A DNA stretch of 64,000 nucleotides from Candidatus Micrarchaeota archaeon (GCA_040753215.1 JBFMEZ010000029.1:29394-93393); one strand, 5' to 3'. Positions 2,969-37,420 are shown, counted from the first letter of the stretch. Notes: generated from the sequence alone by a model not told the origin. Made by a program: numbers and translations.

Positions 2969-2978
2969 TATCCTACTT

Positions 2979-3140
2979 ATGGAACTCAAACAGGCCATCG
3001 TCATTCGCACCGACCTTGACATGGGCAAAGGCAAATTATGCGCCCAAGCAGCACACGCCTCCCTCTCCGCCCGGAAAAACGCGGGGGAAGCGTCCCCCCC
3101 ATTTTTACCGGTCATTCTGACCCCCCTCCACTTCCCTTAG
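2979..3140 (+). pseudogene. decoy 5' fragment of pth2 (31 codons, synonymously diverged) fused in-frame to hairpin element; 53-codon ORF ending TAG
   Basis: [31 protein letters not shown] matches Pth2 N-terminus at 3217; then ..[22 protein letters not shown]. Confidence 0.6.
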
Positions 3141-3216
3141 CCATCCTTGGCACGCCTCCTTACGCACCTCCGCGCATCTAATATCAATATATATCTATCA
3201 TAACCAATCATTACTT
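3072..3216 (+). repeat. 5'-end-associated hairpin element, copy A (AAAAACGCGGGGGA-AGCG-TCCCCCCCATTTTT core plus AT-rich promoter-like tail)
   Basis: Core shared with copies at 21060 and 31384; 6-bp GC stem + T5; tail contains TATA-like ATATATAT 30 nt before pth2 ATG. Confidence 0.6.
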
Positions 3217-3561
3217 ATGGAACTAAAACAGGCTATCGTTATCCGCACAGACCTCGGCATGGGGAAAGGAAAATTGGCTGTACAAGTGGCGCACGCCTCC
3301 CTCTCCGCCTACAAGAAGGTTTCCCCGAAAATCCGCGACGAGTGGGAGCGCACCGGAATGAAAAAAATAGTCCTCAAAGTAAATTCCGAATCCGAGCTCT
3401 TCAAATACTTTGAGGAATGCCGGCGCGCAGGAATCCCCTGCTCCCTCATCCAGGATGCCGGCCTCACCCAAATCCCCTCCGGCTCGCCAACCTGCTTCGG
3501 TGCGGGCCCCTGGGATGCGGAAGGGCTGGACAAAATCCTCGGCAGACTAAAGTTATTATAA
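3217..3561 (+). CDS. pth2: peptidyl-tRNA hydrolase, archaeal/eukaryotic type
   Basis: 114 aa; conserved Pth2 N-terminus and overall length. Confidence 0.85.
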   Translation: MELKQAIVIRTDLGMGKGKLAVQVAHASLSAYKKVSPKIRDEWERTGMKKIVLKVNSESELFKYFEECRRAGIPCSLIQDAGLTQIPSGSPTCFGAGPWDAEGLDKILGRLKLL

Positions 3562-3584
3562 ACCTTATTTACTCATCCCTTCCT

Positions 3585-5895: not shown

Positions 5896-6083
5896 CTCAA
5901 TCAACTGCACACAATGTTCGTTAACGAACAGTTATAGAAATAGAAGTCGTTCGAATAAGTTAAAAAGCAATAAGAAAAAGCGTAAGAGTTCAAGATTTTC
6001 CCGAGACCGTAACGATTTTTGTTGAAACAGTATAAAGCCAGCCTGACCAAAGAGTTTGGCTGACCGATAAGGAGGTTTCAACT

Positions 6084-6665
6084 ATGGAAGAATTGATTAC
6101 CAAGGAACGCGCCAGAGCGTTCATTAAGGCGAATAAGATTACGAATGCCGCCCAATGGGAGGAAGCCATCCTGGCAAGTGGCAAGGCCGTCATAGAGGCC
6201 ATGCTTGAGGCTGAGCGGGACCAGCAGCTTGGCTATGCCAGGAACGACGTCAAAAACAAGGATACGGATAATTCCAGGAATGGGTATAGCCAGAAGATAA
6301 TCCGTTCCAGATTGGGGCAGATGTGCCTCGGCATACCTCGGAATACCCATGGTGAGTTTGAACCTACAATAGTGAAGAAACACGAAAGGGAGATTTCCCA
6401 TGAGGTTGAGAATGCCATCCTCCTGCTATACGCCAAGGGCTTGTCGATGCACGACATCACCTCATATATGGAAAAAATATACAAGGTGCCGGTTTCCGCT
6501 GAGACAATCAGCCGGATAACCGACAAGGTGCTGCCTGCGGCCAATGCCTGGCAGAACCGGCCTCTGGATGACGTCTATCCTATCATTTACCTGGATGGAA
6601 TCGTTTTCCACGTTAACCAGGATGGGAGGATCGCAAGGAAGACTCTTGGACTGAACCCCTGTTAG
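6084..6665 (+). pseudogene. IS256-family transposase, N-terminal fragment
   Basis: 193 aa with Mutator/IS256 N-terminal motifs (..YPIIYLDGIVFHV..DGRI), truncated by IS3 insertion at ~6652. Confidence 0.7.
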
Positions 6666-6704
6666 CGTACCAACAGTTAAGAGACAAAGTGGGGTGTAAA
6701 GTCC

Positions 6705-7010
6705 ATGAAAAAGAGGGTGTATCCAAGAGAAACCAAGATAGCGGTGTTGAATGAGCTCCAGGCAGGAAGATCGGTTGCAGAGCTGTGCAGGAAATACGAG
6801 ATAAATGCCAACCTCATTTACCGTTGGAAATGCGATTATAAGAAAGATCCAGAACGCGCATTTTCTGGCAAAGGAAACATAAGTACTGCCGAGGCAAGGA
6901 TTGCCCAGTACGAGAGGCTCGTAGGGCAGCTCTACGCCGAAAACCGGCTTTTAAAAAAAGCCTTGGAAAGGTTAGAGCGGCTGAAGGCCGAGCAGAAGCT
7001 AAGGGGTTGA
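6705..7010 (+). CDS. IS3-family transposase OrfA (HTH)
   Basis: 101 aa, HTH + leucine-zipper-like C-term; A7G slippery run at 6951-6958. Confidence 0.8.
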   Translation: MKKRVYPRETKIAVLNELQAGRSVAELCRKYEINANLIYRWKCDYKKDPERAFSGKGNISTAEARIAQYERLVGQLYAENRLLKKALERLERLKAEQKLRG

Positions 7011-7882
7011 TACCGATGTTTTACGAAACCATAAAGGAGGAAAAACGCTCAATAGCCCTTAGGCCAGCTTGCAGGGCACTTGGTGTGAGCAGGAGCGGCT
7101 ATCTCGACTGGGAAAAACGAAAGCCAAGGCAAACATCGGCTGAAGATCAAAAAATCCTCAGCCATATGCAGTCCATTGCTGAGGAGTTTGGATACTATGG
7201 ATATCGACGTATAACCAAGGCACTTAGGCGACAGGGAGTTGTTGTGAATCATAAGAGAGTGCTTAGGATGATGAGGGAGAATAGCCTGACGATAAAAATG
7301 AAGAAGTTCAAGCCAAGAACAACAGACTCAAGCCACTCTCTGCCGTCATTCCCAAACCTTGCAAAGGGTTTGGTGGTAGACCATATCAACCAGTTATGGG
7401 TAGCGGATATAACCTATGTTCCACTCGACGATATTTTTCTTTACCTGGCCTTGTTGATGGACGTATTCAGCAGGAAGATCGTGGGATGGCAGTTGGGCCG
7501 GAATATTGATACGGAGCTGTGCCTCGATGCATTGAAAAGGGCGTTTGCATCGAGAAGGGGAATGGACCTGGGCGGCCTGATCCATCACTCTGACCACGGG
7601 AGCCAATACCTTTCCAAGGAATACATATCCCAATTGAAAAACAGGGGCATCCAGTCCAGTACAGGAGAAACAGGCGTTGCTTACGACAACGCCTTTGCTG
7701 AGGCGGTAAACAAACTGGTCAAATACGACGAAGTTTACAGGTCCAAATATGAGTCTTTTGAAGATGCGTATCTCGGAATCAAAAAATACGTGGGGGTGTA
7801 CAACAAGAAGAGGCTTCATTCGGGCATAGGATATTTGCCGCCGGATGAGTTTGAGAAAGCATTAAAAAATTCTCTTATCTAG
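7007..7882 (+). CDS. IS3-family transposase OrfB (DDE integrase core), expressed as OrfAB by -1 frameshift
   Basis: 291 aa with DDE motifs (..WVADITY.., ..HSDHGSQY.., ..YDNAFAE..). Confidence 0.8.
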   Translation: MIPMFYETIKEEKRSIALRPACRALGVSRSGYLDWEKRKPRQTSAEDQKILSHMQSIAEEFGYYGYRRITKALRRQGVVVNHKRVLRMMRENSLTIKMKKFKPRTTDSSHSLPSFPNLAKGLVVDHINQLWVADITYVPLDDIFLYLALLMDVFSRKIVGWQLGRNIDTELCLDALKRAFASRRGMDLGGLIHHSDHGSQYLSKEYISQLKNRGIQSSTGETGVAYDNAFAEAVNKLVKYDEVYRSKYESFEDAYLGIKKYVGVYNKKRLHSGIGYLPPDEFEKALKNSLI

Positions 7883-8563
7883 TGGTACGCTGGAAGGGGT
7901 GCAGTCCAGCATGTTGTATATGGCATCACAATCTCAGGCAGGAAGGAGATCCTTGGCATCTGGATAGGGGAGGCGGAATCTTCGAAATTCTGGGCCAAGG
8001 TATTGATGGACCTACGCAACAGGGGGGTGAAGGACATCCTTATCGCAGCCGTAGATGGGCTTAACGGCTTCTCTGAGGCCATCAGTTCGATCTTCCCCCA
8101 GGCTGAGATACAGAAGTGCATCGTGCACCAGATAAGGACTTCGTGCAAGTTTGTGAGCTACAAGGACCTCAAGCTGTTCTGCACCGGCATGAAACCGATC
8201 TACCATGCCCCCAATGAGCAGGCAGGGCTGGCTGCGCTGGCTGAGTTTGAGAAGAACTGGGGCAAGAAATATCCGTATGCCATCAAGAGCTGGAAGGAGA
8301 ACTGGGCGTCATTGGCGACGTTCTACAAGTACCCGGAGGAGATACGGCGCCTTATCTATACGACGAATCCCATAGAGGGATTGAACCGCAGGCTGAGGAA
8401 GGTCACCAAGACCAAAGGTTCCTTCCCTTCGGATGATGCACTCTTCAAGCTGCTTTATTTGGTGGTTGAGGACGTAAGCAGAAAATGGACAATGCCGATT
8501 GACAACTGGGGGCTCATCCTCCAGCAGCTGAACCTGTACTTTGGGGAACGGATGGGTGCATAT
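7883..8563 (+). pseudogene. IS256-family transposase, C-terminal fragment
   Basis: ..AVQHVVYGITISGRKEILGIWIGEAESSKFWAKVLMDLRNRGVKDILIAAVDGLNGF..NPIEGLNRRLRKVTK..: canonical IS256 C-terminal half. Confidence 0.7.
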
Positions 8564-8890
8564 GCAGACTGCGTAATTCCAGGCATGTTGCCGGCATCCG
8601 CGGTTAGCGGATGCACTGTCCCGCTAGCGCGCGGGACGAACGAACGCTTATATTTTTTGTGTTCGAACGCTTGTTTGCGGACGAAACGCGAGCGCGAGAT
8701 CAGTTTTTGGTTTTGCGAACGCGAGCGGACGAGCGAAGCGAAAGGCGTTTCAACAAAAATTATGACGGACCCCCTGCGCCAATCTATGGCACAACCTATT
8801 CAACCTCTATGCCGCTTAATTCTGTCCCACAGCCGGTTTTGGCATTGGCCGCGCAGGCTTGGACGCAGACCCACGCCGTAGCCATTAACA

Positions 8891-20414: not shown

Positions 20415-21044
20415 ATGGTGATAGAGAAGAAGTTCATAGATTCCCCGATTGAGAAATACCGGGTGATGAAGTTCCTGGAGAAGGAGCTGGACAAGGCGGG
20501 AGTCGCCAACATAGATATCCAGCGCACGCCCATCGTCACGCGCATCTCGATAGAGGTCCTGAACCCCGGAAGGGTGATCGGCCGCAAGGGAAAGACCATC
20601 AACACCCTCACCGAAACCCTCAGGACGAAATTCGGTCTCGAGAACCCGCAGATAAGCGTCGTGGAATCCAAGAACCCGGCGCTCGAGCCCCGCCTCGTCG
20701 CCAAGAAGGCTGCGAAATACATAGAGATGGGCAAGAAGGTGCGCGCGGTGCTCCACTTCCTCATCCACGACACAATCCGCAACGGCGCGGTCGGGGCGGA
20801 GATAGTGGCGGCAGGCAAGATAGGCGCAAAGGGCGCGCGTGCAAAATCCCTCCGCGTGGCGGTCGGCTACATACCCAAGTCCGGCGAGCCGGCAAAGCTC
20901 GTGAGGGAGGCGCACGTGGCGGCAAACACGAAATCCGGAATCATCGGCGTCCTGGTGAGGATTGCGCCGCCCGGGACGGTCTTCCCCGACAAGGGCGCGC
21001 CCACCGAAGTGGTCCTTCCCAAGACGCTTGCAAAAGCGAAGTGA
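20415..21044 (+). CDS. rps3: ribosomal protein uS3
   Basis: KH-domain S3, start MVIEKKFIDSP after L22 stop. Confidence 0.9.
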   Translation: MVIEKKFIDSPIEKYRVMKFLEKELDKAGVANIDIQRTPIVTRISIEVLNPGRVIGRKGKTINTLTETLRTKFGLENPQISVVESKNPALEPRLVAKKAAKYIEMGKKVRAVLHFLIHDTIRNGAVGAEIVAAGKIGAKGARAKSLRVAVGYIPKSGEPAKLVREAHVAANTKSGIIGVLVRIAPPGTVFPDKGAPTEVVLPKTLAKAK

Positions 21045-21182
21045 TGCTCATGGCAATCGCAAGAAAAAACGCGGGGGAAGCGTCCCCCCCATTTTCCTCC
21101 ACCTTTCTGACCCCCCTCCACTTCGCTTTGAGGCGCTTTGAACGCGCTCCTTACGCAAGGGGCAACACAGGGGTGAACTGAA
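21045..21182 (+). repeat. 5'-end-associated hairpin element, copy B, with 12-nt decoy of rpl29 start (ATGGCAATCGCA); 43-codon read-through ORF 21050-21181
   Basis: AAAAAACGCGGGGGAAGCGTCCCCCCCATTTT core identical to copy A; ends GGGGTGAACTGAA-ATG (new RBS for rpl29). Confidence 0.65.
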
Positions 21183-21437
21183 ATGGCAATCGCACGCATA
21201 AACGATTTGAGGGCGCTTGCGCCCGAAGAGCTTGCGAAGAGGCTCGAGACATACGGGCGCGAGATGCTCGAGGCGGGGGAGAACCCCAAGAAGGGGAAGA
21301 ACCTCCGGAAGGCGATCGCCCGCATAAAGACCGTACTCAGCGAGGGCAAAATTGCCCCGGGGAAGGCGGCCGCAGGCACACAGAAGCCGCCATCCGTAAA
21401 AGAAGCAAAACAGAAGAAGGTGAGAAAAGTTGCCTGA
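21183..21437 (+). CDS. rpl29: ribosomal protein uL29
   Basis: 84 aa. Confidence 0.85.
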   Translation: MAIARINDLRALAPEELAKRLETYGREMLEAGENPKKGKNLRKAIARIKTVLSEGKIAPGKAAAGTQKPPSVKEAKQKKVRKVA

Positions 21438-31250: not shown

Positions 31251-31294
31251 GTTCCCGGTTTCCCGTTTCCGGGAGCCGGTTGCGGGTGAATGCA

Positions 31295-31469
31295 GATGAT
31301 AATAACAGTATGGGGATGGACCGGTGCAGGGAAGAATACCCTCGGCGAGCTTCTCGCAAAGCGCCTCGGCTACCGCACCACCAAAAACGCGGAGGGGGAG
31401 ACCCCCTCCCCATTTTTAGGTGTCATTCTGACCCTCCCCCCGGTTCTTTCGAATGAGGTGAATGCATGA
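31295..31469 (+). repeat. 5'-end-associated hairpin element, copy C, preceded by ~88-nt decoy of cmk 5' end; 57-codon read-through ORF ending ATGA-overlapped with true cmk start
   Basis: 69 nt identical to cmk 31478-31546 plus 19 diverged nt; core AAAAACGCGGAGGGGGAGACCCCCTCCCCATTTTT with compensatory stem changes relative to copies A/B. Confidence 0.65.
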
Positions 31470-31984
31470 TTATCACGGTCTGGGGATGGACCGGTGCAGG
31501 GAAGAATACCCTCGGCGAGCTTCTCGCAAAGCGCCTCGGCTACCGCACCGTTTCTCCTACGTTTAAGGACCTCGCGGCAAAGGAGGGAATCTCCCTTCTT
31601 GAATTCCAGAAGAAGGCAGAGAAGGACCCTGACATAGACAGGAAGTTCGACGAGCTCCTCAAGGAAGAAGCCGGGAAGGGCAACTGCATCGTTACCACCT
31701 GGCTCGGCCCCTGGATGGTCCCCGCGGATTTCCGCATCCTGGTGTTCGCTCCGGAGAAGGTGCGCATCGAGCGCATCGCGAAGAGGGAATCCGTCTCCCA
31801 GAAAGAAGCGGCAAAATACGTGCGCGAGAAGGATTCCGGCAACATAAAGAGGTACAAGAACGTATATGGAATCGACATAACGGATACAAGCTCCTTCGAC
31901 CTCGCCCTGAGCGCGGAAACCTACCGCCCGGAGCAGATGGTCGAGATTGCCCTGTTGGCAATAGAAAAGAAAATGAAGAAATGA
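31466..31984 (+). CDS. cmk: cytidylate kinase (archaeal type)
   Basis: 172 aa, WGWTGAGKNT P-loop. Confidence 0.85.
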   Translation: MIITVWGWTGAGKNTLGELLAKRLGYRTVSPTFKDLAAKEGISLLEFQKKAEKDPDIDRKFDELLKEEAGKGNCIVTTWLGPWMVPADFRILVFAPEKVRIERIAKRESVSQKEAAKYVREKDSGNIKRYKNVYGIDITDTSSFDLALSAETYRPEQMVEIALLAIEKKMKK

Positions 31985-37059: not shown

Positions 37060-37420
37060 TCTCCTTTTTGCCATCGTGAACCTCGGCCTCTGCATCGCTG
37101 CGGCGATGTCTGGCGAAGTTCTGCGGAACTTCACCATCGCTCGGTGCAAAAAGGAGTCCAAAAACCCCAAGCACCTTCACGCTGGCGGCGAAACCGGAGC
37201 CCAAAAACCCCAGACAAAAGGGATTACTATAACGCTGCGTTTCCCTTTTATTCTTTTGCCCGTTAATTCGCGTTTTTTTCTCCCGTTTCTTCCCTCTTCC
37301 CCCGCCCAACACCCTTTTTAAGCATTTCTACGGAATATTCTCTCTACGCGTGTTCTTGCGTTCAGAGAATATGAGCCTTAACCCATTTCCTCTCGCGCGA
37401 GCCACGCATTTGGTGATTAT

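Follow-up and report, generated by a model that had tools for sequence, protein, structure and literature searches.

The 64,000-nucleotide stretch of DNA from a Candidatus Micrarchaeota archaeon analyzed here (hereafter, the window) contains an archaeal ribosomal protein cluster, identified from its open reading frames (ORFs) and Pfam matches, in the order L3, L4, L23, L2, S19, L22, S3, L29, SUI1, S17, L14, L24, S4e, and L5. The S3 protein of the window is 92% identical to that of the P0001 contig. Between rps3 and rpl29 lie 133 extra bases. The 12-nt sequence ATGGCAATCGCA occurs exactly twice in the 64-kb window, with a spacing of 133 nt, first beginning 5 nt past the rps3 stop, as initially annotated, and then at the real start of rpl29 (Table 1). 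The match between the two copies extends imperfectly to 22 nt (19/22 identical). The flanking duplication had been described as enclosing a 122-nt element; the two exact copies are indeed present, but the sequence between them is 121 nt long (21062–21182). L29 was kept intact because its start was duplicated, and its N-terminus MAIARINDLRAL aligns with MAVARINDLRAL and MAVAKINDLRAL of relatives.

Table 1. Positions of features in the window and of sequence pairs compared; positions are in the window unless a locus is named.
Feature	Position	Strand	Remarks
rps3 (S3)	20415–21044	+	From ORF list; stop TGA 21042–21044; Pfam KH_2 and Ribosomal_S3_C
Upstream 12-nt direct-repeat copy	21050–21061	+	Ancestral rpl29 start, codons 1–4; now heads decoy ORF
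Decoy ORF, 43 codons	21050–21181	+	TGA 21179–21181, 1 nt before real ATG at 21183; no Pfam match
Family-conserved element	21062–21157	+	nhmmer profile match 21063–21156, E = 7e-23
Element A-tract	21064–21069	+
Element hairpin arms	21073–21078; 21083–21088	+	GGGGGA; TCCCCC; hairpin covariation
Element CCATTTT	21089–21095	+	T4
Element TTCTGA	21105–21110	+
Element C-rich box	21111–21119	+
Element long tail	21120–21157	+	ACTTCGC...CTCCTTACGCA
Copy-specific 25-nt tail	21158–21182	+	Carries SD-like GGGGTGA 21170–21176 and decoy stop
Downstream 12-nt direct-repeat copy	21183–21194	+	Real rpl29 start
rpl29 (L29), 84 aa, intact	21183–21437	+	Pfam Ribosomal_L29, E = 1.2e-7
rpl23 parallel case, same operon	18115–18338	+	Exact 30-nt repeat 18115–18144 / 18309–18338
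pth2 sister copy	2974–3309	+	98-nt repeat 2974–3071 / 3212–3309, 82% identical
pth2 element	3072–3166	+	Followed by 45-nt promoter-like tail 3167–3211
(d)CMP kinase sister copy	31286–31549	+	Repeat ~95 nt; short-form element 31380–31445
Kinase repeat coding part, 84 nt	31296–31379 and 31466–31549	+
Redundant/live pair compared, window	2979–3071 vs 3217–3309
Redundant/live pair compared, L018	~6550–6880
Redundant/live pair compared, L016	~3420–3580

Chance is not a plausible source of the repeat at rpl29. The probability that a 12-mer ending at the 5' edge of the element recurs within 200 nt is roughly 1e-4. Direct 12-mer repeats at spacings of 50–300 nt numbered 106 in the window as against 0–4 in shuffled sequence, and four such duplications account for nearly all of the 106.

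The locus was compared with eleven related operon loci from about six lineages (P0001 contig, L034, L035/L036, L037, L038, and L081–L084), for which gene maps or DNA served as material and whose S3 proteins are 80% to 92% identical to that of the window. The start of rpl29 lies 0–5 nt from the rps3 stop, or overlaps it, at all eleven loci, and L4 abuts L23 in these loci. The rpl29 start of the relatives has a matching context, GAAGTGAT..ATGGCA(G/A)TCGCA. Over the operon, L081 and the window have ~79% nucleotide identity, and this homology runs past the upstream repeat to 21071 and then restarts at 21183. The short spacing in every related locus means that the 133 extra bases are an insertion in the lineage of the window; together with the L081 homology, it identifies the upstream ATG as the ancestral rpl29 start, which the initial annotation had presumed. 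That annotation had also called for a comparison of rps3–rpl29 spacing in related genomes, and its insertion reading survives this comparison, as no related locus has the long spacer. By this evidence, the extra DNA is a lineage-specific insertion into the first codons of rpl29, at a locus known from one MAG contig. The exact left junction cannot be placed because the 5' end of the element, AAAAACG, overlaps AAACG in the target.

Most of the insert belongs to a conserved repeat family, as seen with an nhmmer profile built only from copies in other genomes, with the copies in the window left out. The hairpin had been described as followed by five T residues; the run is T4 at rpl29 (21092–21095), and T5 holds for the other two copies in the window. 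The last 25 nt of the insert are a tail that is not conserved in other family copies. We found no match to this tail among the other loci compared and no similarity to the rps3 3' ends of relatives. An origin as the 3' end of a foreign rps3 is out, as no S3 homologue ends like ...GNTGVN and the rps3 ends of relatives are dissimilar. Carry-over from the flank of another copy was likewise rejected on the lack of a match among the loci compared, and a diverged extension of the duplication is not supported, as tails show no detectable homology to what precedes the first repeat (combined p = 0.30).

The last bases of the insert, directly before the real ATG, are GGGGTGAACTGAA, as had been noted initially, with GGGGTGA at 21170–21176. 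Nearly every gene of the operon has GGTGA 5–9 nt before its start, and the new site, GGGGTGAACTGAA followed by ATG, fits this GGTGA-type Shine-Dalgarno (SD) spacing; the old site, GAAGTGATGCTC followed by ATG, is weaker. The 16S anti-SD sequence is absent from the 64-kb window. The SD-like site had been attributed to the element. It does come with the inserted DNA, but it lies in the 25-nt tail unique to this copy and is not element-encoded as far as the family sequence is concerned. We also considered whether an anti-SD-like spacer in the element (CCTCCACC) sequesters the new SD and AUG. The predicted helix between the spacer and the SD/AUG ranked 6 of 52 copies (shuffle p = 0.09), and the idea was dropped, as the duplex energy was no better than chance.

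The family was found at ~65 loci, almost only in Micrarchaeota MAGs, with the search pattern AAACGCGGRGG-N6-26-CATTTT-N4-16-TCTGAC, which is not expected by chance in the window. Among genomes, with one representative per species, 31 of 33 matching loci were true copies, all from archaeal MAGs and 29 labelled Micrarchaeota or Bilamarchaeaceae. Matches in metagenome contigs were true at 34 of 36 loci. Viral contigs had no genuine match to the pattern; the sole match was a chance one inside a gene, and a viral carrier was rejected. Copies are sparse, with three per 64 kb in the window and five exact-pattern matches on a 1.03-Mb contig. The only Rfam 15 match in the window at gathering score was a tRNA-Ser, and the best matches by E-value over two copies scored 14–21 bits against thresholds of 34–83 bits. 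A known RNA family was thereby rejected, there being no Rfam match at gathering score or with a meaningful E-value. A literature search found nothing joining Micrarchaeota with repeat elements or MITEs, and this hairpin-forming repeat family of Micrarchaeota is apparently undescribed.

The core of the element starts with an outer stem of 2–4 nt, followed by A5, CGC, a G-rich arm, a loop, a C-rich arm, CC, and T4-5, and it ends with A, the partner of the outer stem, (T)CATTCTGA, and a second C-rich box. Most copies have T5. A long form adds ~40 nt (CCACTTCACTT...CTTTG.ACG.ACTCCTTACGCA), an optional extension that ends in CTCCTTACGCA, past which there is no conservation between copies. Across 38 distinct copies, 95.4% of the cells of the long hairpin are paired, and 7 of the 16 pairs have changed on both sides, with three outer-stem pairs seen as CG, GC, UA, and AU. 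These covarying pairs indicate that the structure of the element is under selection. Separately, the second C-rich box (21111–21119 in the window; columns 64–69 of alignment A1) changes in step with the G-rich arm (21073–21078; columns 16–21) in a parallel, or mirror, register. The two informative columns change together, and copies read as a type 1 (GGAGGG / CCCTCC / CCTCCC) and a type 2 (GGGGGA / TCCCCC / CCCCCT) in a pattern like that of a pyrimidine-motif triplex. This triplex-like relation was set aside, as it amounts essentially to one bipartition into types 1 and 2, with L044 and L027 as exceptions.

Copies of the family occupy three kinds of position. Many start ≤7 nt from where a co-oriented gene or tRNA ends (its stop codon or 3' end), and at 12 loci this neighbor is a co-oriented gene. 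Only unambiguous abutments were used, because the program's classification of neighboring genes is noisy at this GC content. Further copies adjoin the 5' end of a tRNA gene (Asn, Ala, or Gly) on the opposite strand. Copies within 0–4 nt of tRNA genes were seen at L003, L033, L040, L057, and L058 (tRNA-Asn), L007 (tRNA-Gly), L020 and L050 (tRNA-Ala), and L014 and L056 (tRNA-Asp), either 5' of an opposite-strand tRNA or directly 3' of a co-oriented one; next to opposite-strand tRNAs, the TAAAAAT of the reversed element is ~31–37 nt upstream of the mature 5' end. Orthologous copies are kept between MAGs with compensatory changes in the hairpin (L003 vs L033).

A third class of copies, including all three in the window, has flanking direct duplications. 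These measure 12 (rpl29), 16, 18, 19, 21, 30, 37, 59, 66, 95, 96, 98, and 101 nt, and the upstream duplicate always ends exactly at the hairpin end of the element. A parallel case at rpl23 has an insert of 164 nt that is a second type of hairpin repeat and holds a 16-nt fragment of the first family at 18264–18279. This second type has the form CTCCTTTTT..(40–75 nt)..GCAAAAAGGAG then NCCAAAAACC, and it was seen in the window at 18115–18338 and 37060–37212 and at L030 (333–355) and L006 (~2089–2138); besides the copy at rpl23, one of these lies upstream of tRNA-Ser. At the kinase junction, the L34e stop is separated from the upstream start of the kinase by an extra 45 nt (31251–31295) that are rich in GTTTCCGG/GGTTTCC repeats and flanked by ATGA; similar motifs occur at 1844–1881, 2032–2069, and 2853–2940. 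The L34e stop overlaps the kinase ATG in relatives, and the extra 45 nt therefore indicate that this junction was hit twice. Other arrangements are nested or tandem, with two inverted copies lying tail-to-tail ~20 nt apart at L051/L063 (~6019–6300, in element orientation) and a 96-nt direct repeat at L010 (800–1050) that surrounds a core and takes in the C-box, the long tail, and 43 nt of flanking sequence. The element at L013 (~130–212) is on the reverse strand, in frame within the 5' end of a hisI-like gene. Here an 18-nt duplication with 102-nt spacing leaves one continuous ORF with a 34-residue N-terminal addition, and a further start, AAGGAAAAAATG, is available within the reversed element.

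The ORF that begins at the upstream repeat runs for 43 codons, as first described, from ATG at 21050 through the element to a TGA at 21179–21181. Six insertions duplicate the start of a gene (rpl29, rpl23, kinase, pth2, L012, and L030), and in five of these a decoy ORF stays open for 43–65 codons through the insert, and its stop falls at −4 to +1 nt relative to the real ATG. At the kinase copy the decoy stop and the real ATG overlap, and L030, one of the five conforming cases, has the element in reverse orientation. The exception is pth2, which has no SD and has its own AT-rich promoter-like stretch. With dinucleotide-shuffled sequence in random phase as the null, at least five successes have a Poisson-binomial probability of ~3e-6, and on the one-in-three phase requirement alone it is ~0.004, in both cases for a criterion set post hoc and n = 6. 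With such a criterion and so small a sample, the statistic is suggestive and not proof. Stops and starts natively overlap at the rps3/rpl29, L4/L23, and L34e/kinase junctions in relatives. The end of a decoy ORF near the real start in five of six cases supports translational coupling, and the coupling of rpl29 to its decoy ORF that had been proposed at the outset gains comparative support from this shared geometry. It is suggestive that insertions which persist would be those keeping a relay of ORFs, as termination-reinitiation coupling would require. The longest ORF into L23 (18113–18568) begins inside the 3' end of L4, and the rpl23 insert gives it a spurious N-terminal extension of 68 residues; gene prediction by program will probably err at loci of this kind.

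A long-form member of the family sits in the first codons of rpl29. The duplicated start, the new ribosome-binding site, and the decoy ORF leave rpl29 intact and, in the reading that we consider likely, expressed. The insertion event duplicated ATGGCAATCGCA and added the 25-nt tail specific to this copy; the duplication regenerates the rpl29 start codon, and the tail supplies a canonical ribosome-binding site of the GGTGA type, 6 nt ahead of the ATG. Ribosomes leaving rps3 would initiate at the old ATG and translate through the hairpin, melting it, to terminate at the decoy stop and re-initiate at 21183 with the aid of the new SD. Such a relay would keep the chain of coupled ORFs that is typical of the operon. 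As a transcription stop, the hairpin followed by just T4 is probably weak and would halt few polymerases. We infer both the translational coupling and the leaky termination from sequence features. The initial reading of the rps3–rpl29 locus was largely right and can now be placed in the context of a repeat family.

The duplicated copies themselves bear on how the family spreads. Where coding sequence is duplicated, almost all differences between the redundant and live copies fall at third or synonymous positions, with ratios of synonymous to non-synonymous codons of 10:4 for pth2, 4:0 for the kinase, 10:1 for L018b, and 5:0 for L016. Redundant copies of gene ends are free of frameshifts and stops. 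At 80.6% identity, the two pth2 copies differ as much as orthologues from different lineages do. The allele in the redundant copy is the clade-typical one, the live gene has an unusual AVQV variant, and at sites that differ, the outgroup matches the redundant copy 12 times and the live copy five. The DNA upstream of the redundant pth2 copy is homologous to the old promoter region. At the pth2 locus, L078 has an empty site, and in L076 a variant hairpin is found with the same long tail, followed before pth2 by a homologous stretch, AATATATA..TATCAT, with no duplicated gene fragment; the pth2 tail of the window is homologous to that stretch (p ~0.001). The L076 hairpin (AGAGGAAGAGGGGGAGG–TCCCCCTCCTCTCTCT, within 1330–1500) is a different one joined to the same long-tail module and promoter-like stretch, an arrangement by which the hairpin core and long tail look like exchangeable modules. 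The kinase repeat is a mosaic, identical over its last 66 nt and diverged with indels over its first ~40 nt. The near-exclusively synonymous divergence of the redundant copies points to recombination with other alleles and not to simple transposition.

For the spread of the family, we favor a break-and-join process in which the hairpin end would be joined to the target and the other side resolved at a variable distance, with heavy homologous recombination. Simple cut-and-paste does not predict redundant copies that diverge like functional alleles. The fixed hairpin junction, the variable duplications, the tails, and the allele-like repeats fit the joining of a hairpin-ended fragment better than the action of a classical transposase. 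Three loci (L004, L030, and L013) fit staggered-cut insertion better.

A somewhat unlikely but tentatively tenable alternative is that each element marks the end of an imported foreign fragment, which entered by one homologous crossover, within the gene or past it, and an illegitimate join, at the level of microhomology, at the hairpin. What looks like a target duplication would then be the DNA lying between the two joints, with the tail derived from the donor. The synonymous divergence at pth2, the kinase, L018b, and L016 favors such an import, as do the orthologue-like distance and clade-typical redundant allele at pth2, the homology of the pth2 tail to a stretch of L076 (a locus without duplication, with L078 empty), and the mosaic kinase repeat. 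A junction that is always exactly at the hairpin end, and the AAACG microhomology at the left junction of rpl29, are also in keeping with it. However, a donor with the layout needed for L004, L030, and L013 would itself have had a disrupted gene, and none of the related operon loci revealed a donor lineage carrying an element between rps3 and rpl29. The tails, moreover, lack the detectable homology to DNA upstream of the first repeat (combined p = 0.30), and the 12-nt repeat at rpl29 is too short to carry allele information.

The window holds several IS elements. A Mutator/IS256-family transposase (6084–8881) is split into two parts (6084–6665 and 8003–8881) by an inserted IS3-type element with HTH_Tnp_1 at 6705–7010 and rve at 7007–7882. 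An IS1595/ISXO2-like transposase on the minus strand (12234–13102) consists of two overlapping ORFs and is probably frameshifted; it adjoins an 869-aa B12-binding radical SAM protein (9586–12195).

It is unlikely that the family is a miniature non-autonomous transposon mobilized in trans by a transposase making long, variable staggered cuts of the kind reported for IS1634 and IS1549, with later homologous recombination with insertion-free alleles producing the allele-like repeats. Copies are dispersed in many genomes with direct repeats, some of them identical over 37–66 nt, relatives have empty sites, and IS256-like, IS3-like, and IS1595-like elements are at hand in the window. These points are countered by the structure of the copies. 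Terminal inverted repeats, which a MITE has at both ends, are lacking, the only strong inverted repeat being the hairpin close to the 5' end, and 3' ends vary between copies; target duplications, of fixed length in a MITE, span 12 to 101 nt. No related autonomous element was found in the window or at ~75 loci of up to ~14 kb, the IS genes of the window are not adjacent to copies, and to our knowledge no IS family found in the window makes such duplications. Neither a transposase nor any other partner was found that explains duplications of 12–101 nt, and the lack of a genuine match in viral contigs also weighs against this explanation.

We regard as rather improbable a third alternative, that the element is a functional, possibly domesticated gene-boundary module, that is, a bidirectional terminator, perhaps with a TATA-like T/A tract, which at rpl29 would act as an internal attenuator or terminator-promoter and uncouple rpl29 and the downstream genes from rps3. 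The A5-GC hairpin-T5 architecture under structural selection accords with this, as do the 12 loci at which the element lies ≤7 nt from a co-oriented stop codon or 3' end, the copies adjoining the 5' end of an opposite-strand tRNA (Asn, Ala, or Gly), and the orthologous copies kept across MAGs with compensatory changes (L003 vs L033). Yet the same element precedes unrelated genes (pth2, kinase, and rpl29), the T-run at rpl29 is only T4, and close relatives run the operon without the element. The selected open frame through the element at gene starts argues for passage of ribosomes and RNA polymerase, and against a boundary module.

It is highly improbable that the copies are a retroposed small RNA, encoded by the reverse strand as an RNA ending in hairpin-GCGUUUUU and copied by target-primed reverse transcription, which would fix the 3' end and let 5' truncation and target duplications vary. 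Copies do have one fixed and one variable end (truncated after the C-box, ACTTCA, or CACGC, or full length), variable-length duplications, and a reverse-strand hairpin and T-run at the fixed end. Against this, the ten window ORFs examined include no reverse transcriptase, the model predicts neither tails specific to a copy nor allele-like repeats, the fold of the reverse strand is unexceptional (z = −1.55), and no Rfam family matches. Other candidates were dropped for want of a defining feature: a diversity-generating retroelement (DGR) for want of A-specific mismatches, an integron attC site as R'/R'' boxes are absent, IS200/IS605 ends as there is no constant target motif, a C/D-box sRNA as there are no paired C/D boxes, and a BHB intron as the junctions are not complementary.

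A bolder conjecture, which we think unlikely, is that the element is a recombination landmark and not a transposon. It would cap or break DNA exchanged between Micrarchaeota lineages by a crossover and an illegitimate join at the hairpin, and survivors would keep a relay or a promoter. Partial gene duplications would then contain a "dead" copy that is the allele of another lineage, and only insertions with a ribosome relay (a decoy ORF open to the real start) or a promoter of their own would survive.

The genomes of DPANN archaea, Micrarchaeota among them, are tiny and tightly packed, and how they change is little understood. The insertion at rpl29 means that a structured repeat found group-wide can enter a universally conserved ribosomal protein operon without destroying it. 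The surviving insertions have a common rescue design, consisting of a duplicated start, a ribosome-binding site, and a decoy ORF stopping at the real start, which may serve as comparative evidence for termination-reinitiation coupling in uncultivated archaea. The same design provides a practical rule for annotation, since gene-calling programs may choose the decoy or lengthen the real gene. The allele-like redundant copies within duplications of 12–101 nt hint at an unusual, recombination-driven spread, which, if confirmed, bears on gene flow in these episymbionts.

The family can be set beside several known systems. Correia elements (of Neisseria), REP/BIME, ERIC, and RUP are small, structured intergenic repeats of bacteria that affect the expression of neighboring genes. 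The family shares with them a size of ~60–100 nt, a hairpin, and many dispersed copies with subfamilies; like them, it occurs at gene ends, between genes, and at times in operons, with possible terminator- or promoter-like signals. Unlike them, it is archaeal (Micrarchaeota), has its hairpin near one end instead of terminal inverted repeats, has duplications of 12–101 nt as opposed to none or a fixed 2–9 nt, and is of low copy number, with no partner enzyme found. REP/BIME in particular are extragenic imperfect palindromes without target duplication that have a RAYT transposase as partner; a palindrome is present in the family as well, but copies also occur in coding 5' and 3' ends with long duplications. 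IS1634 and IS1549 are autonomous elements of 1.5–2 kb with a DDE transposase, terminal inverted repeats, and long, variable direct repeats. Their target duplications, of tens to hundreds of bases, vary as do those of the family, whereas no such transposase gene or ends were seen with the family.

Bidirectional intrinsic terminators consist of an A-tract, a GC hairpin, and a T-tract, and archaeal termination occurs at oligo-T of at least five T. The A5-GC hairpin-T4/5 core of the family, often directly after stop codons, resembles these. It differs in that its sequence is conserved across a phylum-level group, it has the additional TTCTGA, C-box, and 40-nt tail, and its copies also occur inside coding 5' ends with duplications. 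Ribosomal protein operons are known for termination-reinitiation coupling at overlapping or adjacent stop-start pairs. The decoy stop 1 nt before the ATG at rpl29, and the ATGA overlap in other cases, are similar to these pairs, except that the upstream ORF at rpl29 is not a gene and encodes a meaningless peptide made by the insertion.

Homology-facilitated illegitimate recombination is known from bacterial natural transformation. We know of no specific hairpin that serves as its illegitimate end, nor of a description of the process in DPANN archaea. A homologous anchor with an illegitimate joint would give the allele-like copies and donor-type tail seen at pth2, and from these sequences we infer that a process of this kind may have operated. 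What is unusual about the family is the recombination signature of its duplications.
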